A DNA stretch of 64,000 bases from positions 26,905-90,904 of the forward strand of contig JACPLO010000010.1 in assembly GCA_016186495.1 (NCBI GenBank), in the 5' to 3' direction. Origin of the DNA: Candidatus Niyogibacteria bacterium. Its GTDB lineage: Bacteria > Patescibacteriota > Minisyncoccia > JACROR01. Of this stretch, positions 140 through 18,885 are shown in pieces. The position numbers were made by a program, and so were the translations under genes. The notes below the pieces were generated by a model. That model searched no databases, was not told the origin of the DNA, and saw only the letters and a program-made list of their open reading frames with translations. Each line of letters opens with the position of its first letter. Positions within the stretch are counted from its first letter, which is position 1.

Positions 140-153
140 GACGGATTCTATAT

Positions 154-753
154 TTATAAATATAGAATCCAGCCAACCCACTGATTACCGATTTGGTAAT
201 CAGTGGGATTACCATCAATGTACAGAGAATTCGTATAAGGCCGCCCCTCTGTACTTTTAAAAATAAACTGCCCAGTATAGGCAAAAACATTAAACCTATA
301 CTGGCCCAATGGCAGTTTTATGAAAAGGACATTTATCCTTTCATAATAATTACCGTTTTCCCGGCGGCCAGAAGTATCAAACATAATTTCCTTGATACTT
401 CCATTTTCATCGCGTAATCGCAAAGTAATGCTTTGCGAAAACGGCGATTCAAAATGAATGGCTTCTAAGCCGTCCACTTTAAGCCAATGAGAAGAAAGTT
501 TCTCCCAGAACCATTTCTGATTCTGGTTGTCATATCTAAGTACCCGGCCCGGAGTAAGAACTTCAGCCGCGCCTCTATATGGAATCCAAAGGTTTTGCTC
601 CCCTTGGACAAAAATTTCTACATCTTTGCTGACGCCGCGGTCTTGATTAATCAGGGCGCCAAGCTGGGCATCCTTATTTCTTTCAGCAAACCCCCCGGGC
701 GAGGTTTTTATTGCTCCTTGATTTCTAAGATCGTTCGCCAGATTAGCGAGCAC
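154..753 (-). CDS. hypothetical protein
   Basis: 199-aa ORF from track; no recognisable motif. Confidence 0.35.
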   Translation of the reverse strand: MLANLANDLRNQGAIKTSPGGFAERNKDAQLGALINQDRGVSKDVEIFVQGEQNLWIPYRGAAEVLTPGRVLRYDNQNQKWFWEKLSSHWLKVDGLEAIHFESPFSQSITLRLRDENGSIKEIMFDTSGRRENGNYYERINVLFIKLPLGQYRFNVFAYTGQFIFKSTEGRPYTNSLYIDGNPTDYQIGNQWVGWILYL

Positions 754-954
754 AGCTGGCCCGCCTTTTGCTGTGAAAAATATAACCTAAAAGCATTATT
801 CTTTTCATTTTAAACACCTCCTTACTCTTAAAATAGACTTAATATTAGATTCATATTTTTCCTCCTTTTATCCTAAGGGTAACCCTTGGGAATTATTTTC
901 AAAAAACTAATCGTATTTATTATAATTATATCAGAAAATATAAATTTGTCAACT

Positions 955-963
955 TGTGGATAA
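955..963 (+). promoter_or_regulatory. Perfect DnaA-box 9-mer (TGTGGATAA, reverse orientation) upstream of ORF 1025..2011
   Basis: Exact complement of TTATCCACA read from sequence; functional role unproven. Confidence 0.3.
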
Positions 964-1024
964 AAAATCGGGAAAAACAAGAAAAAAAGTGCTAAAATAA
1001 AAATAGCAGAAACTGACCGCAAAT

Positions 1025-2011
1025 TTGAATTTTGCCGGTATTTTGAATTATTCAATGTTTTGGCCAAGCAAAAAAATAATTTATTTAATCGCCGGAATAG
1101 GAACAGCCGGATTACTGCTGTTTTTTCTGCCAATCGTTAAATCTGGACTAAACAAGAATCAAGAATCAAAATTTAAAATTTTTAGTTCAAGCAACCAGGA
1201 ATTAATCCAGAAATTGGAGCAGGAAGCGCAAAAAGACAGCGACAACGACGGCCTAAAAGATTGGGAGGAAGCGCTCTGGAAAACCGATCCGCTGAATCCG
1301 GATACGGATAAAGACAATACCTTAGACGGCGAAGAAATCAGGCAAAATCGCGACCCGCTCAAAGCCGGACCGAACGACCAATTGCCGGATTTAAAAATTG
1401 GAGCGGAAAATAAAATTATTGGCTTGAATTCCCAAGATTTTGCCGCGACAAATTTAACCGGCCAGATCGCCAAGACTCTCGGTTTTAAAGCTTTAAGCGG
1501 CGCGGAAAATAAAAATTTCAGTGTGCCGGCTGATTCGGAATTGCTGGATTCCGCCGCGGAAAAAACTTTGGCGGATTTCACCGCTTTGTTTCATCCGCAA
1601 ATTTCCGAAAACGAATTGATTGTCATAAACGACAACAGTGAAAAAAATTTTGCTGAATACCTTCAATCGTTCAGTAAAGTTATCGCTGAAAATCCTTTGC
1701 CAAAAATATCGCAGGAAGAAGCTTTTCTCCAAGCGGTTCAAGATAAAGATTTTTCCAACAGCAACGAATACCTGAATTATTACCAAAAAATAACGTGGGA
1801 GCTGAAAGAAATTCCCGCGCCAAAAACCTTTGTTTCCAGCCATAAACGGATCATTGAACTTCTGCTCGGAAAAATAGTCGTGCTGGAAAATTTAAAAGAA
1901 ATTGAACGCGATCCTTTGAAAACGATAATCGCCCTTCAAGAACATGAAAAAATCAACGAAGAAATCCGGCAACTGATGAATAAATTTGCTGATTTTTTTA
2001 AGAAGATATAA
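1025..2011 (+). CDS. membrane-anchored protein with acidic Asp-rich (DxDxDG-like, calcium-binding-type) repeats
   Basis: N-terminal hydrophobic helix (IYLIAGIGTAGLLLFFLPIV); DSDNDGLKDWEE / DPLNPDTDKDNTLDGEE repeats. Confidence 0.4.
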   Translation: MNFAGILNYSMFWPSKKIIYLIAGIGTAGLLLFFLPIVKSGLNKNQESKFKIFSSSNQELIQKLEQEAQKDSDNDGLKDWEEALWKTDPLNPDTDKDNTLDGEEIRQNRDPLKAGPNDQLPDLKIGAENKIIGLNSQDFAATNLTGQIAKTLGFKALSGAENKNFSVPADSELLDSAAEKTLADFTALFHPQISENELIVINDNSEKNFAEYLQSFSKVIAENPLPKISQEEAFLQAVQDKDFSNSNEYLNYYQKITWELKEIPAPKTFVSSHKRIIELLLGKIVVLENLKEIERDPLKTIIALQEHEKINEEIRQLMNKFADFFKKI

Positions 2012-2055
2012 ATTAAAATCCTAAATTCCAAATCCTAAATCCTAAATAAATTCCG

Positions 2056-2421
2056 ATGATCAAAATTCAAAATTCAAAACAATATGATTTAGAAGAACGA
2101 ACGTTTGAGTTTGCAAAAATGGTTAGAAGTTTCATTAAGAACTTACCCAAAACCACAGGAAATTTTGAAGACGGAAAACAGGTAATTAGATCTTCCGGCT
2201 CAATCGGCGCGAATTACATTGAGGCAAATGAATCATTAAGCAAAAAAGATTTTATAATGAGAATTAAAATCTGCCGAAAAGAAGCCAAGGAAACGGAATA
2301 CTGGCTAAAGCTAATTGATGTAAATAATAGCGCTGAATTAGAAATTGAAGAACAAAAACTTATTAGAGAAGCTGTTGAATTGAGAAAAATTTTCGGCGCC
2401 ATTTTAGAAAAATCAAAATAA
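2056..2421 (+). CDS. four-helix-bundle protein (23S rRNA intervening-sequence protein family)
   Basis: 121 aa; SIGANYIEANESLSKKDFIMRIKICRKEAKETEYWLKL matches the conserved core of the four-helix-bundle family; flanked by inverted AAATCCTAAA/TTTAGGATTT repeats. Confidence 0.55.
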   Translation: MIKIQNSKQYDLEERTFEFAKMVRSFIKNLPKTTGNFEDGKQVIRSSGSIGANYIEANESLSKKDFIMRIKICRKEAKETEYWLKLIDVNNSAELEIEEQKLIREAVELRKIFGAILEKSK

Positions 2422-2494
2422 TGTTTCGATCATTAGAATTTTGAATTTAGATATTGTTTAGAATTTAGATATTAGAGTTTAGGATTTTGTTTAA

Positions 2495-5269
2495 ATGAAT
2501 CAATTTTCAAACAAAAATTCAAAAACGCGAAAAATCTTAGCCGGAATTTTGCTTTTGATAATTTTATTTTCCGCAAGCTCTTTTTATCCGCGCCAAGCTA
2601 AAGCTGAAACGCCGGTCGCCGATTGGTTTATGAGAATCACTTCTGCATCCGGTTGGGCGTCAGCTATCGCTAATTATGCCAAAGAAGCGGCTGAAAAAGC
2701 GGCTAATATCGCGACCGCGACCTTCCGAAAAATGATTTTGGATATGATTGTGGATGAAATAATCGCCTGGATTTCCGGCGAAGGAACTTCGACTTTTGAC
2801 ACCGGCGATTGGGGGCAATTTTTTGATAAAGCGGCCCAGCAAGCCGGCGGCATATCCTTGGAAGAAATAACCGGGCCGGCTATAATGCAGCAGCTTTGCG
2901 ACGCTGATTGGGCCGGCCAAGTTCGGCTCGCTCTCCAAACTCCTAAAAAATTTGCCCAAAAAGCCCGCTGCACTCTTAGAGACATCGGCGTGAATTTTGA
3001 CGCTTTTATGGATAATTTTGAAAACGGCGGCTGGGCCGCCTGGATTAAAATTTCCGAAAGCCAAAACAATCCTTATGGCTATTTTCTTTCCGCGGTTAAT
3101 GAAAAACTAGCAAAAGAAACGCAGAAAAAACTGGGACTGGAAAAAGAGCTTACCGCTTCCGGCGGATTTTTAAGCGATAAAGTTTGCCGTAAAATATCCT
3201 GCCAAACGCGTTTGAAAATTGCGGGAACACAAGAAGCCGAATATAAAGAAGAAACGGGAAAATGGAAAGAAGATGAAATACCTATAAAAGACGGGACACC
3301 GTGCACTTGCGAAAAATGGGAAACCCTCACCCCAGGCAAGACAATGGCGGATTCTTTAAGCAAAACTGTTTTTAAAGATGTTGACTGGCTGAATGAAAAT
3401 TCAGAATGGTATAATTACGTGGTGGCGATCGGCGACGCGATTGTCAACCGGCTGACTAAAGAAGGGGTAAAAGCCATAAAATCCGCGGTCCCGCGAGGTT
3501 TGCCCACCTCTGTTTCTCAAGGCGTTACCGGCAAGGTTGATTACACGCCTCCTTTAACCTCGGCTAAAATTATTGATGTTTGGCAGGTAAAATTAACCGC
3601 CAATGAACCGGGAGACACTTATTACACTCTTGACGGAACAAAACCGCGCGTTCGCGCTTCTCCTAAATACAACGGTAAAGCGCTGACTATTATCAGCTCC
3701 ACCGCTCCGGGCGCAGCCACGGCCCAGTTAAAATGGCTTAGCGTGGATGACGCTTTCAATACCGAAGATCCGCGCAGCCTGCCGGTTTTTCTGCGCAGCC
3801 CTTTTAATTATTCAACTTTAACCGCTTATCTGGCCAGCCAAGACATCAGCATTCCCGAAAGCATCAAAGAAGCGCTGATAAAATTCTTCCGCGACGAAGA
3901 AAACGGAAAAGAAGCCGCAAAAATCGCCAAGGAAACTTTTATTCCCGCGAATATCCGCGAAGATTTAAAAAACTATCTGAAAATAGAAGATTTAAGAATC
4001 CAGTTAGGCAAAGAGTCTTTAATTAATCCGATCCAACGCAGCCAATTAGACGCTATTTTGGCGACTTACGAAGATTTTAATTCCGCTAATGACGGAAAGC
4101 TTACTGATCTCATTAATGTTTTAATAAAAATAAAAGAAGCGGGAATTAAAGCGTTTATTGACATTCAAACTCATGCCGAAGAAATCAAAGACCGGCGAAA
4201 TAATTTACAATCAATTCTCTCTTATCTCAACGGAGTAATCGCCAGCCTTGAAATATGTTCAAAAGCCCAGGCCGCGGCCGTTATTCGGGAAGGAGAAACA
4301 GCCGAAGAATTCGCCGTCAGAATAGCCGTTGAATCCAGCGCTTGCCAAAAAAACGCCAAAGCCGGCGCTTTTCCCGTTAATCTCAACGGCTTATCCTCGG
4401 GCTTAGCAACGGATCCGCTCTTTTCCGAGCTTAAAGATAAAACAGATAAAATAATTTTGGAACGTTCTTTATTCACGATTGATCCGGCCGGCAATTGGAG
4501 CAAACCTTCCGCCGCGCTCGCGCCAACGGATTCCGGACACGCGGCGATTCTTTCATTTAATCCTTTAACCGACAAACCCACGGCGATTTTCTTTAAACAA
4601 TCATCTTGGGAGACGGCAAATGATCGCAGCGCCGCAGTATCACTTCGTTTTAATAATCAAATTAACGGCTTTTATTATAAACAAGCTTTGGCTGTTCCGT
4701 CCGCAGTGAGTTCCGGCGGCACTGAAATCTGGTATGGAGCGATTGACGCGGCCGGCAATTGGACGGAAGAAAAAACGACTCAAGAATTTAACGCGGATTT
4801 TACCGATCTCCCTCCGCTCACTGATTTTGTCAAGCCAATCGCGGAAATTAAAAATCCGGTTAAAGGAAGTGACGGATATTTTATCTTAGACCCTTCGCTT
4901 TCCGTTGATTTTGACAGCACGCCGCGGATTAGCGGCTATGAATGGGATTTTATTAATAACCGCGGCGCTACGACAACAACCCAATCGCTCCAATATGAAT
5001 GGGAAGCTTTTGATTTAAACCGCGACGGCATTTTTACCGAAAACAACCAATGCCTTTATAATTTTTATTTAAATAATAATGAGGGAACGGTCGTCACCGG
5101 TATGGCTGGTTCAGACACATATTACGTGAACAACGACAACACCCGAGCAGTATCCGGCAGCTTAAGTCAAAAATATTATGACGCGGCTCATAGCTCGCCT
5201 TACAATAAAGCTCCCAATACAAGGCCGTTATATCTCAATCTGCAGCCAACCTGCCTAAAAAACAAATAA
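2495..5269 (+). CDS. large secreted/cell-surface protein (signal peptide; chitobiase/hexosaminidase-C-like YYTLDGTKP motif; Ig/PKD-like C-terminal regions); possible -1 frameshift extension to 5532
   Basis: 924-aa ORF, N-terminal signal/TM segment; downstream frame (5209-5532) encodes a PKD-like segment with no start codon and overlaps a slippery A AAA AAC at the stop. Confidence 0.55.
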   Translation: MNQFSNKNSKTRKILAGILLLIILFSASSFYPRQAKAETPVADWFMRITSASGWASAIANYAKEAAEKAANIATATFRKMILDMIVDEIIAWISGEGTSTFDTGDWGQFFDKAAQQAGGISLEEITGPAIMQQLCDADWAGQVRLALQTPKKFAQKARCTLRDIGVNFDAFMDNFENGGWAAWIKISESQNNPYGYFLSAVNEKLAKETQKKLGLEKELTASGGFLSDKVCRKISCQTRLKIAGTQEAEYKEETGKWKEDEIPIKDGTPCTCEKWETLTPGKTMADSLSKTVFKDVDWLNENSEWYNYVVAIGDAIVNRLTKEGVKAIKSAVPRGLPTSVSQGVTGKVDYTPPLTSAKIIDVWQVKLTANEPGDTYYTLDGTKPRVRASPKYNGKALTIISSTAPGAATAQLKWLSVDDAFNTEDPRSLPVFLRSPFNYSTLTAYLASQDISIPESIKEALIKFFRDEENGKEAAKIAKETFIPANIREDLKNYLKIEDLRIQLGKESLINPIQRSQLDAILATYEDFNSANDGKLTDLINVLIKIKEAGIKAFIDIQTHAEEIKDRRNNLQSILSYLNGVIASLEICSKAQAAAVIREGETAEEFAVRIAVESSACQKNAKAGAFPVNLNGLSSGLATDPLFSELKDKTDKIILERSLFTIDPAGNWSKPSAALAPTDSGHAAILSFNPLTDKPTAIFFKQSSWETANDRSAAVSLRFNNQINGFYYKQALAVPSAVSSGGTEIWYGAIDAAGNWTEEKTTQEFNADFTDLPPLTDFVKPIAEIKNPVKGSDGYFILDPSLSVDFDSTPRISGYEWDFINNRGATTTTQSLQYEWEAFDLNRDGIFTENNQCLYNFYLNNNEGTVVTGMAGSDTYYVNNDNTRAVSGSLSQKYYDAAHSSPYNKAPNTRPLYLNLQPTCLKNK

Positions 5270-5538
5270 GCGAGAGTGAATTCAACGGCCATCCGATTGA
5301 AGAGCGGCAAGGAGCAAAATTTGATATCACTGATTCAACTTATAAAAAACTTTCCAAAATTACGTCTTCAATCGGCACCGGCGCTTCTTATGAAGATATG
5401 AAAATTGTTGACCCTAATAACGGCATTATCAAAGTGAAATTCACGGCCAAAAGCGGCCCGTTGACCATTGGCTTGAGAGTAACCGACGATGAAGGCCTAA
5501 CCGCAACCGCATCCGTTGAAATCAATCCTTAATAAAAA

Positions 5539-7380
5539 ATGAAAAAAAATTTGCCGGACAAAAAATATATTTTAATCGCGTTAGCCAGCCTGATAATCAT
5601 TCTCGGGCCGTTCGCGGCGGAAACAACGTTCGCTTGGCTTCCTTCTGTTTTTCCTTCCATTGAAGATATATTTGCTTCTTTAGGTAATGTGATACTCTGG
5701 ATTGTTTCCTGGGTTTTATGGCTGGCCGCGCAACTTTTTGAAATGACCCTTAAATTAACTCTAAACAACGGCGCTTTTGCCAAGATCAGCGCCATTAATC
5801 TTGGCTGGAAGATTATTCGGGATGTGGTTAATCTATTTTTTATTTTTATTCTTCTTTATATCGCCATCGGCGCCATTTTGCGCCTGGCCGGCCATGATAC
5901 CAAAAAACTCCTGGTTAATTTAATCATCGCGGCTCTTTTAATAAACTTCAGTCTGCCTATTACTAAAGCCATTATTGACGCTTCCAACATTCTGGCTTTG
6001 GAATTTTACGATAACATCGGAAAAGACAAAGACGGAAATGATATCGGCGTAACTAGAACAATGATGAATGGCCTGCGCCTGACTTCTGTTTATAATAACA
6101 AAGTGTTAGAAATACCTCCCGGAACAGCGGATAAAGAAGGAGCTGCTTTCCAAAATATTATTATAGGCGCAATCGGCGGATCAGCCCTTATCTTAGTCAC
6201 GGCTTTTGTTTTTCTCGCCGCCACTTCTCTTTTTATTTTCCGGACAATCATACTTTTATTTTTAATGATTCTTTCACCTTTGGCTTTTGGCGCGATGATC
6301 CTGCCTAACACCAAACAATACGCTGACCGTTGGTGGAAAGAACTGGGCTGCCAATGTCTGCTGGCGCCGGCTTTTATGTTTATGATTTATTTGGTGGTGA
6401 TGATTATTAATAACGAGGATTTTTCTGCCGTGATCAGCGGAATTGGCGGAAACCAATCAGCAAGCATCGCTGAAGCCTTTACCAGCGGCATAGAAAAATC
6501 AGTTGGGGTTGTCCTTAATTTCTTGCTTTTAATCGGCTTAATGATCGGTTCCCTGATTATTTCTAAAAATTTGGCTTGCGCCGGCGGCAGCCAGGCAATG
6601 GCCGCGGCTAACTGGACAAAAGGAAAGGTCCAAGGATACGCGAAAAGCTATGGTAAAAGAGGCATTGGCACCGCAGCGGAATACGCGATGGAAAAAGGGA
6701 AGAAAATAGAAGAAAAAGGAGGTCGTTGGGGAAAAATAATGGGGGTTATCAGAAAAACTCCGGGCGTGGGCCGCGGCTTAGCCGCGCTATCCGCGGGCCG
6801 AGAAGAAGAGCTTGCCGCCAAACGCAAACAATATGAAAAACAATATAAAGGCTACAGCGATACCGGCTTGCAAACCATGCTGGAAACGGAAATCATTACT
6901 CCAGAAAAAAGAGAAGTTATTAAAAAAATCCAAACAGGAAGACAGGTGAAGAAAGAAATTGAAGCCAAAGAAAAAGCAAAATACAAAGAAATAGTCGGCG
7001 GCGAGGAAACCGAAATTGAATATGAAAAAGAAGGAAAAACGGTGAAAGAAAAAATAACAACCATCGGCAAACTTGGAGAAATAAATGAACAACTAAGCAA
7101 AATAACGGGAGGAATAAATAAAGATATCGGCAGTTATCTGGACGGAATTGAAGCGGAATTAGGAAAATTAAGCGGCAATACTTCAGGCAGAGCCCAACAA
7201 AGACAAGGAGAACTTGTTTTCAACCGAAATAAAATAAACAGATTAATGAAAGAAAAAGAAAAACTGGAAGCAATAAAAGAAAAACTGGAAGAAAAACAGC
7301 AAAGCGAAACGGAAAAAAAGAAACTTGAAGAAAGATTGGGAAAACTTGAACAAAAACCCGAACCAAAAGAAATAATTTAA
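5539..7380 (+). CDS. polytopic membrane protein, VirB6/TrbL-like, with Lys/Glu-rich coiled-coil C-terminus
   Basis: 613 aa, multiple hydrophobic helices in the first ~350 aa, position upstream of the VirB3/VirB4 genes; assignment by architecture and context. Confidence 0.45.
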   Translation: MKKNLPDKKYILIALASLIIILGPFAAETTFAWLPSVFPSIEDIFASLGNVILWIVSWVLWLAAQLFEMTLKLTLNNGAFAKISAINLGWKIIRDVVNLFFIFILLYIAIGAILRLAGHDTKKLLVNLIIAALLINFSLPITKAIIDASNILALEFYDNIGKDKDGNDIGVTRTMMNGLRLTSVYNNKVLEIPPGTADKEGAAFQNIIIGAIGGSALILVTAFVFLAATSLFIFRTIILLFLMILSPLAFGAMILPNTKQYADRWWKELGCQCLLAPAFMFMIYLVVMIINNEDFSAVISGIGGNQSASIAEAFTSGIEKSVGVVLNFLLLIGLMIGSLIISKNLACAGGSQAMAAANWTKGKVQGYAKSYGKRGIGTAAEYAMEKGKKIEEKGGRWGKIMGVIRKTPGVGRGLAALSAGREEELAAKRKQYEKQYKGYSDTGLQTMLETEIITPEKREVIKKIQTGRQVKKEIEAKEKAKYKEIVGGEETEIEYEKEGKTVKEKITTIGKLGEINEQLSKITGGINKDIGSYLDGIEAELGKLSGNTSGRAQQRQGELVFNRNKINRLMKEKEKLEAIKEKLEEKQQSETEKKKLEERLGKLEQKPEPKEII

Positions 7381-7416
7381 CCCTGTTAAATGTTTTGCTT
7401 TGCAAAATTTAACAGG
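7381..7416 (+). terminator. hairpin CCCTGTTAAAT...ATTTAACAGGG following the VirB6-like gene
   Basis: perfect 11-bp inverted repeat read directly. Confidence 0.45.
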
Positions 7417-7435
7417 GTTAATCCATTAAATTAAA

Positions 7436-8077
7436 ATGAAATCATACACCGAACAAGAATTGGAAAAAAAATACAAACAACTTCCGGCAACAGTAGAGGA
7501 AGTGATTTTCAGCGCTAATGCGGCAAAAACTCTGGAAGAAATCAGGAAAAAATACAAACTTCAGATAGACCAACTGGGGATTTTAGCCAATGAAACCCGA
7601 CTGGTGATGCTCGGCCTGACCCATCCTAAAGATTTTATCAATAATCTGGCGGAAGGGCTGGAATTAAACAAAGAAATCGCAAAAAACATCGCCCAAGAAA
7701 TAAATCAGCGGATTTTTTACAAAATCAGGGAAGAATTAAAAAAAATGCACAGCATCGGCGAACCGGCTGATTTTTCGCCAAAGGCAGGTTCGCCTCTTCC
7801 GCCTAAAGCTGGCCAGCCTTCGGCTGGGGCTAAAAAATTCAGAATTCAGGATTTAAAAAAAACAGCGGAATTGCCGCCGATTATTGAACCAACGCCGTTA
7901 GAGCCGCCGCCAACAGAACCGCCGCCGTTAATCGCGGAAAAACCAAAAATCCCTGCCGTGCCGTTTGAACACAAACTGAAAAGCGAAGAAACAATCCGGC
8001 AGCCGCTTGAAAAAATCAAAACTTCACCGGATAAAAAATATCCCGGAGAAGACCCGTACCGCGAACCGATTATTTGA
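7436..8077 (+). CDS. hypothetical protein with Pro-rich C-terminal half
   Basis: 213-aa ORF; PPxEPPP repeats; no known domain recognised. Confidence 0.35.
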   Translation: MKSYTEQELEKKYKQLPATVEEVIFSANAAKTLEEIRKKYKLQIDQLGILANETRLVMLGLTHPKDFINNLAEGLELNKEIAKNIAQEINQRIFYKIREELKKMHSIGEPADFSPKAGSPLPPKAGQPSAGAKKFRIQDLKKTAELPPIIEPTPLEPPPTEPPPLIAEKPKIPAVPFEHKLKSEETIRQPLEKIKTSPDKKYPGEDPYREPII

Positions 8078-8126
8078 TAATATTTTTTATAAATTAAGAA
8101 ATACGGACAAATTGCTTTAAATTTTT

Positions 8127-8534
8127 ATGCAATATCAAGTTCCCCAATTTACCGAGGTTGAAGATAAAATTTTCGGGCCCCTGACTTTCAAACAGTTCGT
8201 TTATATTCTGGGCGCCGCGGCTTCCGCTTTTCTTTTTTGGCGCCTTTTGCCTAAATGGCTGGCTGTTCTTTTAATCGTTCCGATCAGCGGATTTTTTCTG
8301 GCGCTGGCTTTTTTAAAAATCAACGGCCAGCCTCTGCTTAAAGTTTTAACCAGCGCTCTTAATTTTTCCATCGGCAGCCGGCTTTATATCTGGAAAAAAA
8401 CCGAAGAAAAACCATTAGAAAAAAAAGAGGAGACGCTCGCCGAAAAAGAAGCGCTGGCTCTGCCCAAACTTACGGAAAGCAAATTAAAAGAGCTGGCGTG
8501 GAGTTTGGACATCCACCAAAAATTAAAACGTTAA
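8127..8534 (+). CDS. PrgI/VirB3-like small membrane protein
   Basis: 135 aa; KIFGPLTFKQFVYILGAAASAFLFW motif typical of the PrgI family, followed by two TM helices; sits immediately upstream of VirB4. Confidence 0.5.
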   Translation: MQYQVPQFTEVEDKIFGPLTFKQFVYILGAAASAFLFWRLLPKWLAVLLIVPISGFFLALAFLKINGQPLLKVLTSALNFSIGSRLYIWKKTEEKPLEKKEETLAEKEALALPKLTESKLKELAWSLDIHQKLKR

Positions 8535-8538
8535 TTCA

Positions 8539-9174
8539 ATGAAATCTAACCCCAGCCAACAATTAATTCCCATTTCGGAAATTCGCGACGACGTCGTTAT
8601 TCTGAAAGACGGCTCTTTCAGAATGATTTTAATGGCTTCTTCCATTAATTTTTCCCTTAAATCTCTGGAAGAACAAAAAGCGATTATTTCCCAATACCAG
8701 TACTTCCTGAATACTTTGGATTTTTCCGTCCAATTTCTCATCCATTCCGCTTCTTTGGATATTAATCCTTATCTGACGATGCTGAAAGAAAAAGAAAAAA
8801 CGCAGACCAATGAACTTTTAAAAATCCAAACGCGGGAATATTCGGAATTCATTAAAAACTTCATTGAAACGAATAAAATAATGTCCAAGACTTTTTATGT
8901 CGCCGTTTCTTATACCGCCGCGGTTGTTCCCGCTGCCGGCGGCCTCTTGGAAAGTTTTAAAAAATTAACCGGCCAGAAAGAAAAAAGCTCGGAGTCGGAG
9001 GAAAAATTTTTGGAACATAAAAACCAGCTCTGGCAAAGAATAGACGCGGTCACCGAGGGCCTGGCGCGCTGCGGCGTGCGCACTGTTCCGCTGAAAACCG
9101 AGGAATTGATTGAATTATTTTATCAGCTTTACAATCCCGGCGAAACCGCAGAAGGAATAGCGCTTAAAACATAA
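8539..9174 (+). CDS. VirB4/TraE-family N-terminal domain (split from the ATPase domain)
   Basis: IPISEIRDDVVILKDGSFRMILMASSINFSLKSLEEQKAIISQYQYFLNTLDFSVQFLIHS resembles the CagE/TrbE/VirB4 N-terminus; stop TAA at 9172-9174, next ATG at 9176 in the +1 frame. Confidence 0.55.
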   Translation: MKSNPSQQLIPISEIRDDVVILKDGSFRMILMASSINFSLKSLEEQKAIISQYQYFLNTLDFSVQFLIHSASLDINPYLTMLKEKEKTQTNELLKIQTREYSEFIKNFIETNKIMSKTFYVAVSYTAAVVPAAGGLLESFKKLTGQKEKSSESEEKFLEHKNQLWQRIDAVTEGLARCGVRTVPLKTEELIELFYQLYNPGETAEGIALKT

Positions 9175-9175
9175 C

Positions 9176-11005
9176 ATGGCTTTACTTGATTTTTTCAAAT
9201 CAAAAAAGAAAGAAGAAAAAGAGGAGGAAATCTTGCCGGTTTTCCCCGCGGAAATTTATGAAGCCGGCGCTTTGGAATTAAAAGACGTCATCGCGCCTTC
9301 CGCTTTTGAAATAAGCTCAAATTTCATAAAAATCGGCAATAAAATCGCTAAAACTATTTTTGTGTATTCTTATCCCCGTTATCTTTCCACGGAATGGTTT
9401 TCCCCGATCATTAACTTGGATCAAATTTTTAATGTTTCTATTTTTATCCATCCCATCAACACCGAAACAGTCCTGAAACAAATGCAGAAAAAAGTGGCGG
9501 AAGTCCAGTCGCAGATCAGCATCCGCGAAGAAAAAGGGCTGGTTCGCGATCCGATTTTAGATACCGCCTTAAACGATCTGGAAAATCTGCGCGACAAACT
9601 CCAGCAAGCCCAGGAAAAACTTTTCAGCGCGGGAATTTACCTTACTATTTACGGCGACACGCTTCAGGAAGCGAACCAAAATGAGGCGGAAATCCGCCAT
9701 ATTTTAAACGCCAAACTGATTCAAACCAAACCTGCTCTTTTTCAGCAACAAGAGGGATTTGACAGTGTTTTGCCGTACGTCACCGACAAACTCCAGATCA
9801 ACAACCGCCTTAATTCCGAGCCTTTGTCTTCTATTTTTCCTTTTGTCTCTTTTGACCTCACCTCGGATAAAGGCATCCTTTACGGCATAAATCGCCACAA
9901 TAACTCGCTGATCCTTTTTGATCGCTTCAGTTTGGAAAATTACAATTCGGTTATCTTTGCCAAAGCCGGCGCCGGAAAATCATACACCACCAAATTAGAA
10001 GTCCTCCGTTCTTTAATGTTCGGCATAGACGTGATGATTATTGACCCGGAAAGAGAGTATGAATATTTGGCGGAAACCGTGGACGGCCGCTATATCAACA
10101 TTTCTTTAACTTCAAAAAATCATATTAATCCTTTTGATTTGCCGATTCCGCGGGAAGATGAATCGCCTTCCGATGTTTTGCGCTCTCATATCATTAATCT
10201 GGTCGGCCTTTTCCGCTTAATGCTGGGAGGATTGACGCCGAAAGAAGACTCTATTTTAGATCAAGCCATCACCGAAACCTACGCCGCCCATGACATTACT
10301 TTTGGAGCGGATTTTACCAAAGTTACGCCGCCTATTCTTTCCGATCTGGAAATGATTCTCGCTTCCACCGAAGGCGGGGAAGGATTGGCCCAGCGCCTGA
10401 AAAAATACACCAGCGGCAGTTGGGCGGGATTTTTAAACCAGCCCACTAACGTTGATATTAATAAACACTTGATTGTTTTTTCCGTCCGGGATATGGAGGA
10501 AGAATTAAAACCCGTGGCTATGTATCTGATCACCCATTATATCTGGAACGCGGTGCGGCTAACTTTAAAAAAACGGCTTTTAATCATTGATGAGGCTTGG
10601 TGGATGATGAAAACAGAGGATGGGGCTTCCTTCCTTTTCGGTTTGGCCAAACGGGCGAGAAAATATTATCTGGGAGTCTGCACCATCACTCAAGATGTCG
10701 GAGATTTTTTAAATTCTCCGTACGGCAAAGCGATTATCACTAATTCCTCAATGCAGCTTCTTTTGCGCCAATCTCCCGCGGCAATGGATCAACTGCAGGA
10801 AACATTCAACCTGACGGATGAAGAAAAATATCTTCTGTTGGAAGCGGACGTGGGCGAAGGCGTCTTTTTTGCCGGTTTAAAACACGTGGCGATAAAAGTG
10901 CTGGCTTCTTACACCGAAGATCAAATCATCACTTCTGATCCGGCCCAAATGCTGGCGATTAAAAAAGCGAAAGAAGAATATCAGCAATCCCAAGAAACGG
11001 GTTAA
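9176..11005 (+). CDS. virB4: VirB4-family type IV secretion ATPase (C-terminal NTPase part)
   Basis: Walker A AKAGAGKSYTTK; Walker B-like LLIIDEAWWMM; 609 aa; combined with 8539..9174 gives ~820 aa, normal for full-length VirB4. Confidence 0.8.
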   Translation: MALLDFFKSKKKEEKEEEILPVFPAEIYEAGALELKDVIAPSAFEISSNFIKIGNKIAKTIFVYSYPRYLSTEWFSPIINLDQIFNVSIFIHPINTETVLKQMQKKVAEVQSQISIREEKGLVRDPILDTALNDLENLRDKLQQAQEKLFSAGIYLTIYGDTLQEANQNEAEIRHILNAKLIQTKPALFQQQEGFDSVLPYVTDKLQINNRLNSEPLSSIFPFVSFDLTSDKGILYGINRHNNSLILFDRFSLENYNSVIFAKAGAGKSYTTKLEVLRSLMFGIDVMIIDPEREYEYLAETVDGRYINISLTSKNHINPFDLPIPREDESPSDVLRSHIINLVGLFRLMLGGLTPKEDSILDQAITETYAAHDITFGADFTKVTPPILSDLEMILASTEGGEGLAQRLKKYTSGSWAGFLNQPTNVDINKHLIVFSVRDMEEELKPVAMYLITHYIWNAVRLTLKKRLLIIDEAWWMMKTEDGASFLFGLAKRARKYYLGVCTITQDVGDFLNSPYGKAIITNSSMQLLLRQSPAAMDQLQETFNLTDEEKYLLLEADVGEGVFFAGLKHVAIKVLASYTEDQIITSDPAQMLAIKKAKEEYQQSQETG

Positions 11006-11034
11006 TTCGTTTTTGATGATTAATTTTTACGACT

Positions 11035-11406
11035 ATGGACGGAGACGAAAATCAAAGATTAATGGAGTTACAGCAAGCGCGGCTGGGAGCGCTGGAAACG
11101 GCAAAAACACCGGCGCAAGAAATGAAAGAAGCGCTTTCTTTCGGAAAAAAAGTTTCCGAACATTGGCTGATTTTGGGAATTGCCGCGCTTTTTGACCTTT
11201 TAGCTCTGATTCCTTTTGCCAGCGTTTTTTTTAATTTTTGTTTCGGCGGCGTTTTATTTTTTTATTTCGGGCCAAAAAGAAAACCGGGCGATTCGGAATT
11301 GGCAAAAATTTTTCTGCCGATAATGGCCGGCAGTATTTTTGATTTTTTTATCAGTATTCTGCCGATTAATATCGCCGCTGCCCTGATTAGAATCGCGCTG
11401 AGTTAA
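11035..11406 (+). CDS. small integral membrane protein
   Basis: 123 aa, 3 hydrophobic helices; within the T4SS-like cluster. Confidence 0.35.
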   Translation: MDGDENQRLMELQQARLGALETAKTPAQEMKEALSFGKKVSEHWLILGIAALFDLLALIPFASVFFNFCFGGVLFFYFGPKRKPGDSELAKIFLPIMAGSIFDFFISILPINIAAALIRIALS

Positions 11407-11421
11407 TTGTTATAATAAAAT

Positions 11422-12405
11422 ATGCCGAATTATCGTAAAAATATCATTTTATTGCTTATTTTATTTATCCTTTTATCGCTGCCCGCTGAAATCAAGGCGA
11501 TCGGCGATGATTTTTTCATCACCTTTCTCCCCGATAATCCAACGCCGAATTCTCCGGTCACCGTTAAACTGAAAAGTTATCAGTTTGACGTTAACCGGGC
11601 GGCGATTACTTGGGAAGTTGACGGAAAAGTCATTGCCGGCGGATTAAGCGAAAAAACTATTCAGCTGACCAGTCCGGATTTAGGCAAAACTAAAAAACTC
11701 ATTGTTTATGTCACCACGGCTGACGGCATTCAAGCCAGCCAAACTTTTATTCTAAACGGCAACGATCTTGATTTTCTTTGGGAAGCGATGACCTCGGTGC
11801 CGGCCGGCTACAAAGGCAAAGCTCTTCCCAGCGCGGGATCAACCGTAAAAGTTTCCGCTATTCCTTATCTCTTTAAAGACAATAAAAAATTATCGCCGGA
11901 AAGTTTAGTTTACGAATGGTCGCTTGATTTTAATAAAAAAATCAGCGCCTCGGGCGCGGGAAAAGATTCTTTTACTTTTTCTCTTGACGGCAATCAAGAC
12001 CGCACAATCGTCTTAAAAGTTTCCGACCGCCTGGAAACAATCAGTTTTGAAAAAGGATTTACCATTTCCGGCGATAATACGCCGCCGGAAATCTTGTTTT
12101 ACGAAGAACATCCTCTGGAAGGGCCGATTTATCGCCGGGCGCTCCTCGAAGAAGTCAGCCTCCGCGCCAACGACTTGGCTCTGCGCGCCGAACCTTTTTA
12201 TTTTTCGCAAGAAAACATCGCTAACCTTTCCTATGAATGGAAAATGAACAATAAGCCGCTGGCTAACGAAGAAAGGCCGCGCGTTTTGAATCTTTTGGCG
12301 CCGGCCCAAAGCGCGGGAAAAACCGCGATTGAAGTTACGATTAAACATCCGGATAAATTTTTACAGTTTGCCGATGCGGCGCTTGATATAATTTTTGGAG
12401 AATAA
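11422..12405 (+). CDS. secreted protein (signal peptide), unknown function
   Basis: 327 aa; N-terminal ILLLILFILLSLPAEIKA signal; beta-rich composition. Confidence 0.4.
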   Translation: MPNYRKNIILLLILFILLSLPAEIKAIGDDFFITFLPDNPTPNSPVTVKLKSYQFDVNRAAITWEVDGKVIAGGLSEKTIQLTSPDLGKTKKLIVYVTTADGIQASQTFILNGNDLDFLWEAMTSVPAGYKGKALPSAGSTVKVSAIPYLFKDNKKLSPESLVYEWSLDFNKKISASGAGKDSFTFSLDGNQDRTIVLKVSDRLETISFEKGFTISGDNTPPEILFYEEHPLEGPIYRRALLEEVSLRANDLALRAEPFYFSQENIANLSYEWKMNNKPLANEERPRVLNLLAPAQSAGKTAIEVTIKHPDKFLQFADAALDIIFGE

Positions 12406-12413
12406 ACCTTGTC

Positions 12414-13007
12414 ATGAATAAATCAAAACAAATAATTTTAATAACAGTTTTGTTAGCCGCGATTTTCATTCCGCTGATTTTTGTTTCTAGCGCTTACACG
12501 CCAATGGAGCCGCTTCCCGGTATTAAAAAAGATACAGCGGTTAATCTAACCGACTATCTATCCGCTCTTTTTAAATATGCCATTACCGTGGCCGCGGTTT
12601 TAGCGGTCATAATGATTGTCATCGGCGGAATGCAGTATATCGGCGCCAGCGGCAACACCAGTGTGGTTGAAGACGCCAAAGACCGGATTTATTGGGCGAT
12701 TGTCGGCCTGATTTTAGCGCTCGGCTCCTGGCTGATTTTAAATACCATTAACCCAAATTTAAAAAACTTAGAATTAAAAGGAATAGAAAAGCAAAGTATA
12801 AAAGACATAACAACAACTGAACTCTTTAGTGAAATTAATGGAAATATTAGCACTGTTGAAAAAAAATCTGCTGAATATCAATGGAAGTCAGCACCTTATG
12901 GAAAAGATTGCGCTGATATTATACCGGGTTGTGTAGGCGTTGATTCAAAAAAATGTGGAGAAACAAAGCCCGCTGAAAAAAATATATGCTGTGCTTGTCC
13001 TAACTAA
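12414..13007 (+). CDS. TrbC/VirB2-like T4SS pilin candidate with Cys-rich C-terminal tail
   Basis: 197 aa; signal-like N-terminus, two hydrophobic helices separated by a GASGNTS loop (the VirB2/TrbC hairpin architecture); C-terminal CxxxxxGC...CC.C cluster. Confidence 0.45.
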   Translation: MNKSKQIILITVLLAAIFIPLIFVSSAYTPMEPLPGIKKDTAVNLTDYLSALFKYAITVAAVLAVIMIVIGGMQYIGASGNTSVVEDAKDRIYWAIVGLILALGSWLILNTINPNLKNLELKGIEKQSIKDITTTELFSEINGNISTVEKKSAEYQWKSAPYGKDCADIIPGCVGVDSKKCGETKPAEKNICCACPN

Positions 13008-13035
13008 TAATTTAATTTTATTTGTATTTTAATTT

Positions 13036-14208
13036 ATGATAACAAACCGCAAAAAAATAATTATTGTTGTTTCCGGCGCCGTTAGCCTGATTATTTTAGG
13101 ATTGATTTTGATTTACTTTTTACTTTTCCGAAGCGTGCCAACGGCGGAACGGGGAGTGATCGGCCGGCTGTTTCCCGCGGCTGAAGAAAAAGAACAATCA
13201 TTCGCTGAAACCATCCTTGGGACAGAACAAAAAGAGGAAAAAATCAAAAAAAGTTTAACCCAACTGACCACGGTCGCGGTCACCGGCTTAAAAGCAATTT
13301 CCAACGGCCGCGTGCGCTACCTGGAAAAAGCCACAGGCCATCTTTATGAAATAGGCGGCGACGGCGAAGAACGGGTGCGGATTTCCAACACCACGATTCC
13401 GAAAATATCCGACGCTTTCTGGTCCGCGGACGCGGACAAAGCAATTTTAAGCATTTTTGACGATGAAAACATTAAATATTTTTCCGCGGTTTTTACCGGC
13501 ACCAGTACCCAAGGAGTGTTTTTGCTTCCGGATATCAATCTCGGCGGATACGCGCCGCGAAAAGACCAGTTTTTATACGGCGCGGCAATCAACGGACGCA
13601 ATTCTTTAATTACCGCTGATCCGAAAAATGCCAAACAAACTAAAATTTACAGCACTCCTTTCGGCGATTTTTCAATCAGCTGGCCCGCGGAAAACGCGAT
13701 CAGCCTGCTGACCCGGCCTTCTGGAACAACCGAAGGTTATCTATATAAAATCAACCCGCAGACCGGCATTTTCAGCAAAATCATCGGCGGCTTAAGAGGA
13801 CTGGAAGCGCTTTGGTCTCCGGACGGAGAAAAAATTTTAATTTCCCAAATCTTGCCGGCTAACGGAGAAATAGTTTCTTCTCTTATTTCCGCTCAAGGAA
13901 AAGAAATTAGTTTAGGGCCGAAAACCATGGCTTCCAAATGCGCTTGGGCCGCCACCACCACGGCCAGCGTAATTTATTGCGGCGTTCCGGTTTATTTTCC
14001 AGCCGGCGTTTATCCCGATGATTGGTTTAAAGGAAAAATATCGTTTAACGACCGTTTGTTCAAAATAAACACCGCTTTTCCGGAAACAGGAGAAATTCTA
14101 ACGGAACAAACTTTTGACATAGAAAAAATAACTGTTGATCCAAAAAGCCACTATCTTTATTTCACGGATAAAAAAGACGAAACTTTATGGGGATTGAAAT
14201 TAGATTAA
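13036..14208 (+). CDS. membrane-anchored TolB-like beta-propeller (PD40 repeat) protein
   Basis: N-terminal TM; LWSPDGEKILIS-type PD40 repeats. Confidence 0.45.
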   Translation: MITNRKKIIIVVSGAVSLIILGLILIYFLLFRSVPTAERGVIGRLFPAAEEKEQSFAETILGTEQKEEKIKKSLTQLTTVAVTGLKAISNGRVRYLEKATGHLYEIGGDGEERVRISNTTIPKISDAFWSADADKAILSIFDDENIKYFSAVFTGTSTQGVFLLPDINLGGYAPRKDQFLYGAAINGRNSLITADPKNAKQTKIYSTPFGDFSISWPAENAISLLTRPSGTTEGYLYKINPQTGIFSKIIGGLRGLEALWSPDGEKILISQILPANGEIVSSLISAQGKEISLGPKTMASKCAWAATTTASVIYCGVPVYFPAGVYPDDWFKGKISFNDRLFKINTAFPETGEILTEQTFDIEKITVDPKSHYLYFTDKKDETLWGLKLD

Positions 14209-14227
14209 CGCTTTTGAAATTGAAAAT

Positions 14228-14731
14228 TTATAAATATGGCTTGATAACCACCCGCCGATTAGGTTCTTCCCCAATGCTTTCCGTAAGAATATCCGGACAT
14301 TCGGTCAGAACAGAATGGATAACGCGCCGCTCATAAGCGTTCATCGGCGGCATTAAAATTTCTTTTTTAAAATATCTGACTTTCTGGGCGTTCATTTTAG
14401 CCATATCCTCCAAAGATTCATTTTTTTGTTTTTGGTAATCATTGACATCTAAAAAAAACTGAGGAACATCATCTTCAGTTATATTTATTTTGGCGATTTT
14501 TTTCACCAAATGATTTAAAGCCGCCAAGTTAGCGCCGTTATTTCCGATAAGCATTCCGGCATTTTTCGTTTTAAGGGTAAATCTAACGCCGGCTGAAGAA
14601 AAATTTTCTTCCACTTCCGCGATTATTCCCATTTTTTCAACCAAGATTCGGATAATTTCTTTGACTTGAGCGGAAATTTCTTTTTTAACCGGAATGGTCT
14701 GGGGGCGGAGCGGTTTGAGCAAATTGTCCAT
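14228..14731 (-). CDS. jag: Jag/KhpB-like RNA-binding protein (KH + R3H)
   Basis: 167 aa; NAYERRVIHSVL...EPNRRVVIKP R3H motif; immediately downstream of yidC, as in the standard oriC-region operon. Confidence 0.7.
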   Translation of the reverse strand: MDNLLKPLRPQTIPVKKEISAQVKEIIRILVEKMGIIAEVEENFSSAGVRFTLKTKNAGMLIGNNGANLAALNHLVKKIAKINITEDDVPQFFLDVNDYQKQKNESLEDMAKMNAQKVRYFKKEILMPPMNAYERRVIHSVLTECPDILTESIGEEPNRRVVIKPYL

Positions 14732-15452
14732 ATTGTATTTTTTTTGCTTTATATCTTACGATGCCTTCGTGAATTATAGTAAAAATATTCGTTGTTGTCC
14801 AATACAAAGCCACGGCCGCCGGAAAATTATAAGCAAAAATTCCGATAAAAACCGGCAGAACGTAAATCATCTGAATTTTCATCGCGCGGCTGAAATCTCC
14901 CTTTAAAGATTCGTTTGATTTTTTTTCAGAAGAAAAAGACGGCGGCTGCGTTAATTTTGCCTGAATAAATTGGGATAAGCCGGCGGTAATCGCTAAAAAT
15001 AAGCTGGCCGCGCCCAAATCAATCAATCCCAAGAATTTCATCCGCGTTATTTCAGGAAAAGCAATAAAAGAATAAAGATGGCCTTGCGTTAAATTTAAAC
15101 CTCGCCAAAAAAGACGATAAAGAGCGATTAAAATAGGAAATTGAACAAATAACACTAAAAATCCGGAGAAAGGATTTATGCCGTGTTGGCGATAAAGTTC
15201 CATTATTTTTTTAGCCTGCTCTTCTTTATTCGGATGTCTGGCCCGCAATTCTTTTATTTCCGGCTCAATCTCTTTCATTTTAAATTGAGTTTTAATTGAA
15301 TGATGAGTTAAAGGAAAAAGAGCGCTTCTGATTAAAACTGTCAGCCCGATAATCGCCAAACCCGCATCGCGCCCGGGCATAATGCTGATTAAAAAAATTA
15401 AAGCGTTAAAAAGAGGGCGGGAGAGAAATTCGGTATAAATAAAAGAAAACAT
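14685..15452 (-). CDS. yidC: membrane protein insertase YidC (short Gram-positive type)
   Basis: 255 aa; ...HGINPFSGFLVLFVQFPILIALYRLF..., YidC/Oxa1 core; operon position. Confidence 0.8.
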   Translation of the reverse strand: MFSFIYTEFLSRPLFNALIFLISIMPGRDAGLAIIGLTVLIRSALFPLTHHSIKTQFKMKEIEPEIKELRARHPNKEEQAKKIMELYRQHGINPFSGFLVLFVQFPILIALYRLFWRGLNLTQGHLYSFIAFPEITRMKFLGLIDLGAASLFLAITAGLSQFIQAKLTQPPSFSSEKKSNESLKGDFSRAMKIQMIYVLPVFIGIFAYNFPAAVALYWTTTNIFTIIHEGIVRYKAKKIQYGQFAQTAPPPDHSG

Positions 15453-15461
15453 AATTTCCTG

Positions 15462-15800
15462 ATTATTTTAATAATTTTGCTTTTTTAAAAATTTCTAAAA
15501 TATTTTTTTCAAGTTCAAGATAAGAAAGTTCGGTTGCTCCTTTTTTAAAAACTAAAATTATTGCCCCGCCTTCTTTTAAATCAGGCAAATAACGCCTGAT
15601 AATGGAATAAGAACGTCTTCTTAATTTATTTCTCGCCACGGCTTTTTGCCGGCCTTTTTTGAAATCACGCAGGCAAACTTGCTGTGATCTCGGCTGATTT
15701 TCAGATAAACCGTCAAATAATCGGTGAAAAATCTCTTCCCGGTCCGATAAATAAGAAAAAAAACATCCCTGCCTTTCAGTTTGCGGGATTTAGGCAGCAT
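15462..15800 (-). pseudogene. rnpA: RNase P protein component, interrupted by a 1-nt frameshift near 15621-15630
   Basis: Manual translation: MLPKSRKLKGRDVFFLIYRTGKRFFTDYLTVYLKISRDHSKFACVISKKAGKKPWREIN* (59 aa), then the RnpA-like C-terminal part (KLRRRSYSIIRRYLPDLKEGGAIILVFKKGATELSYLEL...) continues in another frame; total span 338 nt, not a multiple of 3. Confidence 0.5.
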
Positions 15801-15806
15801 AAAAAA

Positions 15807-15942
15807 CTAAACCGCCAGCCGTTGACGCCCCTTTCTTCTTCTTTTTTTAATAATTTTACGGCCGCTGGTATTTTTTTTTCTTTTTAAAAAACCATGAGTG
15901 CGAGCGCGTTTTCTTTTTTTAGGCTGATAAGTAATAGACATA
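15807..15942 (-). CDS. rpmH: 50S ribosomal protein L34
   Basis: Manual translation [44 protein letters not shown]; classic rpmH-rnpA-yidC-jag order. Confidence 0.75.
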
Positions 15943-15986
15943 TAAATACTATACAATATATCAGATTTAAAAACAATTTTTACAGG

Positions 15987-15995
15987 TTATCCACA
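15987..15995 (+). promoter_or_regulatory. Perfect DnaA box TTATCCACA upstream of dnaA
   Basis: exact 9-mer read from sequence, 113 bp upstream of the dnaA start. Confidence 0.5.
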
Positions 15996-18860: not shown

Positions 18861-18885
18861 AACCAGTCTTAAAAATAACTTTTAA

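Follow-up and report, generated by a model that had tools for sequence, protein, structure and literature searches.

The 64-kb stretch of contig JACPLO010000010.1 analyzed here (the window) comes from a metagenome-assembled genome (MAG) of Candidatus Niyogibacteria, a member of the Parcubacteria group of Patescibacteria, and carries a type IV secretion system (T4SS) gene cluster on its plus strand at positions 2495 to 14208. We conclude, with a probability of about 0.88, that this locus is the chromosomal, origin-adjacent T4SS characteristic of Patescibacteria (the candidate phyla radiation [CPR]) in its Paceibacteria/Parcubacteria version, and that, by analogy with homologous systems, it would serve host interaction and not conjugation. 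The initial annotation, made from the sequence alone, had treated the system as possibly novel; it has already been published (PMC10633639, PMC12102498, and PMC12857230, a 2025 T4SS review that features the Patescibacteria system), and the locus is a correct rediscovery of a typical member. A survey of 3035 Patescibacteria genomes found VirB4 in 2417 of them, mostly as one clade nested in MPF_FATA, with TrsD, VirB3, VirB6, and VirB2 homologues each often near virB4, relaxases rare, and dnaA, dnaN, and rnpA as neighbors in Paceibacteria (Quiñonero-Coronel et al. 2025, Microb Genom, PMC12102498). The window shows the same combination: VirB4 with an adjoining TrsD-like protein, PrgI/VirB3, VirB6, a VirB2-like pilin, no relaxase, and dnaA, dnaN, and rnpA nearby.

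The cluster consists of ten open reading frames (ORFs) encoding proteins of 924, 613, 213, 135, 211, 609, 123, 327, 197, and 390 amino acids (aa). The intergenic gaps are 1 to 55 nucleotides (nt), except for 269 nt 3' of the first gene. The initial annotation described the ORFs as co-directional and closely packed, and the layout and all of its coordinates are correct, whereas its number of twelve genes is not: ten are real genes, and two further ORFs (5276 to 5401 and 5398 to 5532) are out-of-frame remnants that probably explain the higher count. All of the T4SS components that it had assigned were recovered by profile or fold searches.

VirB4 is distributed over two ORFs on the plus strand, as the initial annotation had read from the coordinates and the sequence. 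The 211-aa TrsD-like protein (8539 to 9174) is the counterpart, encoded by a gene of its own, of the N-terminal portion of complete VirB4 proteins, and the 609-aa VirB4 ATPase (9176 to 11005) comprises the rest of the N-terminal domain and the C-terminal ATPase domain. The junction reads AAA ACA TAA C ATG, with the stop codon at 9172 to 9174, the ATG at 9176, and a +1 shift between them. The two proteins cover complementary parts of a single VirB4 model (NF045971, CD1110 family): the ATPase aligns to model positions 184 to 733 with 375.7 bits (cut-off, 325), and the TrsD-like protein aligns to positions 2 to 159 of 752 with an E value of 9.6e-9. The second-best model for the ATPase is VirB4 of the Mycoplasma integrative and conjugative element (ICE). 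The 211-aa protein matches the TrsD/TraD model NF041427 weakly (E value of 9e-6; 25.6 bits against a cut-off of 200), and its precomputed assignment is PF26593, TraC-like. The initial annotation had named a lone, degraded VirB4 with broken Walker motifs as a finding that would speak against a secretion system; both motifs are intact, with Walker A (AKAGAGKS) at residue 262 and Walker B (LLIIDE) at residue 468. In addition, the ATPase matches the VirB4 C-terminal domain structure in the PDB (4AG5; E value of 2.9e-43) and residues 299 to 735 of R388 TrwK (E value of 1.7e-8).

The initial annotation had left open whether the split is a two-subunit arrangement or a frameshift. A frameshift or sequencing error at 9172 to 9176 in a single virB4 gene is suggested by the spacing of the two ORFs, which lie 1 nt apart in different frames and jointly cover one VirB4 model. 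However, six independent metagenome assemblies of the same strain give identical gene calls of 211 and 609 aa at the junction. We compared the locus with 80 species-representative Patescibacteria genomes whose VirB4 is 67 to 84% identical to that of the window (81 loci with the window itself), and TrsD-like and VirB4 proteins are encoded by separate ORFs in 80/80 of them, with the TrsD-like gene immediately upstream. The relative frames of the pair are 1, 2, and 0 in 36, 25, and 19 genomes, respectively. Spacing between the two ORFs varies from –4 to 497 nt, whereas the lengths cluster at about 210 to 222 aa for the TrsD-like protein and 600 to 625 aa for VirB4. Sometimes, as in L014, a further gene is inserted between the two. 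The 211-aa protein has 3396 relatives in the database that stand alone, and the best 120 are all 208 to 239 aa long, down to 53% identity. The pair is likewise annotated as separate genes on Firmicutes megaplasmids, and TrsD, which resembles the VirB4 N terminus and is known from pGO1, has been described as a stand-alone protein and as the commonest T4SS component beside virB4 in Patescibacteria (PMC12102498). The comparative data refute the frameshift explanation, whose probability is practically nil, and the split VirB4, judged by comparison of sequences, is a genuine, conserved two-gene arrangement with no lesion.

The genes around virB4 encode the expected membrane partners. Directly 5' of the TrsD-like gene lies the gene of the 135-aa PrgI/VirB3-like small membrane protein (8127 to 8534, plus strand), which matches PF12666 (PrgI) with 45.4 bits (cut-off, 27), as the initial annotation had proposed, and carries a hydrophobic hairpin at residues 35 to 63; by analogy, it may be the membrane anchor of VirB4. 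The 197-aa protein (12414 to 13007, plus strand) is a VirB2-type T4SS pilin. It matches PF18895 (T4SS_pilin) with 38.9 bits (cut-off, 26.6) and NF045849 (Mbov_0395 pilin-like) with an E value of 2.6e-7, and it is composed of a leader, a two-helix hydrophobic core (residues ~33 to 119), and a 78-aa C-terminal tail with 6 Cys residues, in keeping with the Cys-rich VirB2/TrbC-like pilin first suspected. The 613-aa protein (5539 to 7380, plus strand) has the topology of a VirB6/TrbL-like polytopic protein of the "extended" type, with about 6 to 7 hydrophobic helices in residues 1 to 341 followed by a Lys/Glu-rich hydrophilic C-terminal half. TrbL matches (PF04610) were obtained for 8/40 of its orthologues (best E value of 1.3e-7), and the match of the window protein itself, although below the cut-off, spans nearly the full profile, positions 3 to 213 of 215. 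We therefore regard a VirB6 near virB4 as present at the family level, a reading that relies on profile similarity and topology.

The order of the genes recurs in up to 80 of the genomes: 328-aa protein, large surface protein, VirB6, 213-aa protein, PrgI, TrsD-like protein, VirB4, protein with three immunoglobulin (Ig)-like repeats (327 aa), pilin, propeller protein (390 aa), then jag and yidC on the opposite strand, dnaA, and dnaN. According to iterated hidden Markov model (HMM) searches, the families occur in the 81 loci as follows: TrsD in 80, PrgI in 77, the three-Ig-repeat protein in 71, the pilin core in 66, the 213-aa protein in 65, the propeller in 62, VirB6 in 59, the surface protein in 48, the 328-aa protein in 46, and a 123-aa membrane protein in 4. 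Beside the cluster in the 80 loci, yidC was found in 56, dnaA in 51, and dnaN in 49. Both the gene order and the origin-adjacent position thus recur in the synteny comparison that the initial annotation had called for. None of the 80 best VirB4 genome matches carries a title outside Patescibacteria, several being labeled just "bacterium."

In the window, 19 nt separate the end of the cluster from jag (14228 to 14731, minus strand), which is convergent with it. Next come yidC (14685 to 15452, minus strand) and rnpA (~15463 to 15800, minus strand; split in this assembly), and beyond these lie dnaA (16108 to 17475) and dnaN (17760 to 18860), so that the T4SS is found ~2 kb from jag-yidC-rnpA/dnaA-dnaN. 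Because of the dnaA and dnaN neighbors and a minimum of the cumulative GC skew at ~18 to 20 kb in the window, the T4SS cluster appears to adjoin the replication origin. The ~13-kb T4SS operon (1025 to 14208, plus strand) is situated left of the inferred origin, and its transcription runs toward the origin, convergent with jag and yidC; judged from GC skew only, it would be head-on to replication. The orientation of the T4SS relative to dnaA is identical in related loci.

To search for conjugation functions, Pfam profiles were run against the ten proteins of the cluster and against twenty further ORFs of the window, the remaining ORFs being read by eye as housekeeping-like. The scanned ORFs of the 64-kb window include no relaxase, VirD4/TcpA coupling protein, VirB1-type hydrolase, VirB8 to VirB11 component, or integrase; apart from the integrase, these absences agree with the initial annotation. 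No SLT, CHAP, NlpC/P60, or M23 match was found in any cluster protein. Nor does a notable inverted repeat mark an oriT, which is not recognizable without a relaxase. For a VirB8-like protein (NTF2 fold), no sequence match was obtained in the cluster; the 327-aa candidate looks Ig-like, and the 390-aa protein is a propeller. The sole other secretion ATPase in the scans is of the PilB/GspE type (26349 to 28019, minus strand; T2SSE with 375 bits plus an MshEN domain), located 12 kb from the T4SS and presumably serving type IV pili.

Such absences would also be seen if the cluster were a decayed conjugative element, i.e., the nonfunctional remnant of an ICE or integrated plasmid that has lost its relaxase, coupling protein, and hydrolase. 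The nearest non-CPR relatives belong to conjugation-type VirB4 families (CD1110, Mycoplasma ICE, TraC), TrsD-like homologues occur on Firmicutes and haloarchaeal plasmids, and the surface-protein gene, the first of the cluster, is truncated in the window. However, decay is hard to reconcile with the same gene order at the same origin-adjacent site in dozens of species spanning the above range of VirB4 identity, with intact ORFs and retained ATPase motifs. No att-like direct repeats or terminal inverted repeats were detected around the cluster in a repeat scan, there is no integrase, and the GC content of the cluster is like that of its flanks. As for the truncation, it is absent from three same-strain assemblies, and rnpA in this assembly is also split by a 1-nt indel, which argues for assembly error over decay. 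A decayed element is therefore very improbable, and a Patescibacteria T4SS remains the favored identification.

The truncation itself is a real frameshift that the initial annotation had overlooked. The window lacks 73 nt inside an A-run at 5257 to 5262 that are present in three independent same-strain assemblies (L002, L004, and L005). With these 73 nt restored, the first gene runs from 2495 to 5532, 7 nt before virB6, and encodes 1036 aa with a PKD-type end; in L002, the frame reads through to ...LRVTDDEGLTATASVEINP*, and an orthologue has a length of 1043 aa. Of the two out-of-frame remnants, the one at 5398 to 5532 encodes the C-terminal end of the surface protein. The second lesion concerns rnpA: one nucleotide is missing from a T-run at ~15643 to 15647 (T5 in the window versus T6 in L001 to L003), which leaves two ORFs at 15463 to 15639 and 15621 to 15800 (58 and 59 aa), whereas the gene is intact, with 112 aa, in L002 and L003. 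For the 73-nt loss, the microhomology in the A-run points to either a collapse during assembly or a deletion specific to the strain. Since three other same-strain assemblies contain the 73 nt and the same assembly splits the essential rnpA gene by a homopolymer indel, both lesions are probably assembly errors.

Several observations weigh against the proposed identity and function. This assembly has a truncated gene for the large surface protein, and the TrbL match of the VirB6-like protein (E value of 1.7e-4; 21.9 bits) is below the Pfam cut-off of 25.9. No VirB8-like or VirB1-like component was identified, the three-Ig-repeat protein being not NTF2-like by sequence. The examined sequence amounts to 64 kb of the genome, and a distant coupling protein is possible; most genomes have VirD4 homologues, located far from virB4 (PMC12102498). 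Finally, the function proposed for the Paceibacteria T4SS rests on analogy with Saccharibacteria, where the system has been tested genetically.

The Saccharibacteria T4SS is Gram-positive-like with added pilins, lacks a coupling protein and relaxase, and is essential, including its pilins, for epibiotic growth (Wang et al. 2023, Cell, PMC10633639). The locus in the window resembles that of Southlakia epibionticum ML1 (SEML1_0006 to SEML1_0019, PMC10633639) in its Gram-positive-type subunits and pilins, in the lack of a recognizable coupling protein or relaxase in the cluster, and in the proposed role at the epibiont-host interface. The nonconjugative secretion or cell-contact apparatus suited to an episymbiont that the initial annotation had envisaged matches the published view (PMC10633639, PMC12102498). 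The Southlakia system belongs to a different class, Saccharimonadia, and has six divergent pilin genes compared with the one Cys-rich-tailed pilin here; it also has essential peptidase and lysozyme genes 3' of virB4, none of which were found in the window, and its essentiality has been shown. The published survey reports an association of VirB1 with virB4 in Paceibacteria, whereas no VirB1 homologue was found in this locus (PMC12102498).

Among conjugative systems, the order of VirB3-like protein, TrsD-like protein, and VirB4 ATPase is that of trsC-trsD-trsE and traC-traD-traE of pGO1 and pIP501 (MPF_FATA), with the reservation that the TrsD model match is weak. These plasmids differ in that they are mobile, possess a relaxase, a coupling protein, a VirB1-like hydrolase, and VirB8-like proteins, and have no pilin. 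The pilin and VirB4 of the window also match the models of the Mycoplasma ICE proteins Mbov_0395 (pilin-like) and Mbov_0397 (VirB4). An equivalent core is found on Firmicutes megaplasmids (Pontibacillus NZ_CP062975 and Clostridium perfringens pJFP838A), with a TrsD-like protein 27 to 32% identical to that of the window. In the Pontibacillus record, the series runs from an Mbov_0395-type pilin-like gene through the genes of a 779-aa protein without annotation, a small protein, and a TrsD-like protein to that of a CD1110-type VirB4 of ~620 aa, followed by an M23 endopeptidase gene. Unlike the window, these Firmicutes megaplasmid clusters encode a large M23 peptidoglycan endopeptidase and no TSP3, three-Ig-repeat, or propeller genes, and they lie on plasmids typed as nonmobilizable and not beside oriC. 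Because Firmicutes megaplasmids carry pilin-like genes in equivalent clusters, VirB2-like pilins among monoderms are not confined to Patescibacteria, which qualifies the published statement that monoderm T4SSs lack them.

In line with homologous systems, PrgI and the TrsD-like protein would dock VirB4 hexamers on the VirB6 translocon, and ATP hydrolysis by VirB4 would extract the pilin from the membrane and polymerize it into a pilus or tube across the monoderm envelope. Exposed parts available for host contact would be the tail of the pilin, which is variable and Cys rich, and the Ig, PKD, and propeller proteins that are secreted, and the machine may serve the epibiotic lifestyle through contact-dependent protein export into the host or through access to host material. 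A 2026 preprint describes tubular structures, possibly T4SS pili, at the parasite-host interface of one cultivated lineage.

The direction of transport could also be inward, with the apparatus acting as an import machine for host DNA, RNA, or nucleotides, comparable to ComB of Helicobacter and Ced of Sulfolobales; this would leave its identity unaffected. These organisms lack nucleotide synthesis, the locus has neither a relaxase nor a coupling protein (PMC12102498, PMC10633639), and the same preprint ties host-RNA feeding to possible T4SS pili and a monophyletic VirB4. The window VirB4 has weak matches to the archaeal DNA-import ATPases CedB (E value of 1.8e-8) and CedD (E value of 1.5e-5), but at 33.5 bits against a cut-off of 700 and 23.9 bits against 600, respectively, they reflect the shared ATPase fold only. 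Deletion of comEC in Saccharibacteria kills competence and not viability, so the essentiality of the T4SS does not operate via ComEC-dependent DNA uptake (PMC12857230), and the window gives no sign of a nucleic-acid-binding component in the cluster. We consider import unlikely, though worth keeping in view, beside the host-interaction T4SS favored above.

The large surface protein (2495 to 5532, plus strand; annotated ORF, 2495 to 5269) is secreted. A signal peptide leads into a conserved N-terminal domain (~330 aa), which is followed by an Ig-like domain (CHB_HEX_C/Fn3_assoc) and a helical stretch; β domains with a terminal PKD-type motif make up the C-terminal part. The chitobiase-C-like motif of the initial annotation was found as CHB_HEX_C_1 (29.5 bits; cut-off, 22) at residues 364 to 424 of the 924-aa form, and it is present in 24/24 homologues, with PKD_4 in 6; the PKD end was likewise borne out in the intact form, while 924 aa proved to be a truncated length. 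The structure prediction that had been proposed for the 924-aa protein was run with AlphaFold2 (AF2) on a 24-sequence alignment and was poor, with a mean predicted local distance difference test (pLDDT) score of 49 and values of <50 in the N-terminal domain. A profile search of this domain against PDB sequences gave nothing better than an E value of 0.1. The N-terminal motif ESQNNPYG was considered as a mark of a divergent lytic transglycosylase (VirB1-like); neither profile nor structural support was obtained, and the idea is speculation.

Upstream of the surface protein, the 328-aa TSP3-repeat protein (1025 to 2011, plus strand) matches PF18884 (TSP3_bac) with 30.2 bits (cut-off, 25); it has a bacterial TSP3 (calcium-binding) repeat and a single hydrophobic segment at residues 18 to 36, an N-terminal membrane anchor. 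A homologue lies directly 5' of the surface-protein gene in 46/81 loci, and the conserved cluster probably has its 5' limit at this gene, so that on this comparison it would begin at ~1025 rather than at 2495. Between the two lies the gene (2056 to 2421, plus strand) of a 121-aa protein with a four-helix-bundle fold (23S rRNA intervening-sequence family; PF05635, 57.6 bits), which is flanked by 20-nt inverted repeats (2059 to 2078 and 2433 to 2452). Its homologues occupy varying operon positions in other loci (L009, L014, L034, L062, and L071), including the PrgI/TrsD gap in L009 and the TrsD/VirB4 gap in L014, and the gene looks like an inserted, small mobile-like cassette and not a part of the T4SS.

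The 213-aa protein (7436 to 8077, plus strand) has no hydrophobic segment. Its N-terminal domain (~105 aa) is conserved, and a linker rich in Pro connects this domain to a DPYRE(P) motif at the C-terminal end (residues 206 to 210, nt 8051 to 8065). In an alignment of 44 orthologues, D206 and Y208 are invariant and P207 and E210 nearly so. In ~50 loci, the motif is placed 2 to 6 residues before the C terminus; within the window, it has no second occurrence. The protein has no Pfam or PDB match (nothing better than an E value of 0.1 in the PDB profile search). Its family, which has no Pfam model, comprises 4635 representative clusters at an E value of ≤1e-3, with the N-terminal domain in 1 to 4 tandem copies, and a Pfam scan of long homologues revealed no fused domains. 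The protein probably works in the cytoplasm as an accessory or adaptor to the secretion machine. An apparent fusion of the 213-aa protein and PrgI in L014, which would have been Rosetta-stone evidence, was rejected, as nothing but a masked stretch of N joins the ORFs. A near-perfect hairpin (7377 to 7421; 18-nt arms, 94% complementary, 9-nt loop) was noticed in the 55 nt that separate virB6 from the 213-aa gene; it might be an intra-operon RNA element. Scans for promoters and terminators were at background (40 promoter-like sites versus 30 ± 6 expected; 25 terminator-like sites versus 23 ± 5.5), and Rfam gave zero matches in positions 1 to 20000.

Downstream of virB4, the 123-aa small membrane protein (11035 to 11406, plus strand; 2 to 4 hydrophobic segments) has no family match in Pfam or NCBIfam and is lineage specific, with homologues in just 3 other loci (L007, L009, and L010). 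Pairwise hhalign comparisons of the 123-, 213-, 328-, 327-, and 390-aa, pilin, PrgI, VirB6, and TrsD families all gave probabilities of ≤2%, by which the 123-aa protein was ruled out as a second pilin or PrgI paralogue, its values to pilin, PrgI, and VirB6 being within this limit. The 327-aa protein (11422 to 12405, plus strand) is a secreted three-Ig-repeat protein with a signal-like N terminus and invariant Trp residues at positions 64, 166, and 273, a spacing of ~100 aa. It has weak matches to BiPBP_C, Ig_3, and aBig_2, and its weak PDB profile matches are mostly of the Ig type, the best being phage Hoc (E value of 0.0034).

The last gene of the cluster encodes a 390-aa anchored β-propeller protein (13036 to 14208, plus strand), identified by AF2 and Foldseek. 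The model (mean pLDDT, 89.2) has a helix at residues 5 to 31, a disordered linker, and 27 strands across residues 74 to 388, from which about seven blades are predicted. Foldseek matches in the PDB are the seven-bladed oligogalacturonate lyase 3c5m (E value of 1e-9), TolB 7mx5 (2e-9), Lp49, and WD40 proteins, and C302 and C315 are invariant. The designation TolB-like propeller is correct as to the fold, with TolB among the top matches; the best match, however, is the seven-bladed lyase, and the protein is membrane anchored.

Most neighbor genes of virB4 are left unassigned in the published survey (PMC12102498), and the synteny across Paceibacteria, as seen by sequence comparison, of the DPYRE protein and of four proteins that are secreted or anchored is a modest addition to the literature. 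The pilin tails are a further point of difference. After the conserved core, they range from 3 to 342 aa (median, 164), differ in most cases from one species to the next without recognizable relationship, and are often Cys rich (L007 to L086); this variability has no mention in the main text of PMC12102498, and we consider the hypervariable tails a minor new observation, modest in scope. It is conceivable, though doubtful, that the Paceibacteria T4SS carries its own extracellular host-recognition module made of the pilin core with its hypervariable tail and the four secreted or anchored proteins, with the DPYRE protein as an adaptor in place of a coupling protein. If the pilin packs like known conjugative pilins, the tail would decorate the exterior of the pilus as a built-in, fast-evolving adhesin, and its partners would be the TSP3 protein, the 1036-aa CHB_HEX_C/PKD protein, the three-Ig-repeat protein, and the propeller. 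Were this true, the machine could be a conduit for tapping host macromolecules.

Two features elsewhere in the window were noted. In the ORF at 37279 to 38415, Peptidase_M50 (site-2 protease) is joined at the C terminus by a domain resembling the RNA polymerase alpha CTD (PF03118; E value of 8e-9), an unusual pairing. At 57381 to 59596, a gene pair with overlapping stop and start codons and a low GC content (0.35 to 0.36) encodes a 331-aa protein without a family match and a 407-aa ClpB-D2-like AAA_2 ATPase.

For annotation, the 73-nt deletion and the 1-nt rnpA indel are probable assembly errors of a public MAG that could mislead, and the TrsD/VirB4 junction is an example showing that this split is ancestral and not an error. 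The locus adds little to the known picture of the Patescibacteria T4SS; it is useful as a well-resolved Paceibacteria example that lists conserved accessory genes as study targets. The system to which it belongs is near-universal in the group, is essential for epibiotic growth in one tested species, and is the leading candidate route for host exploitation.

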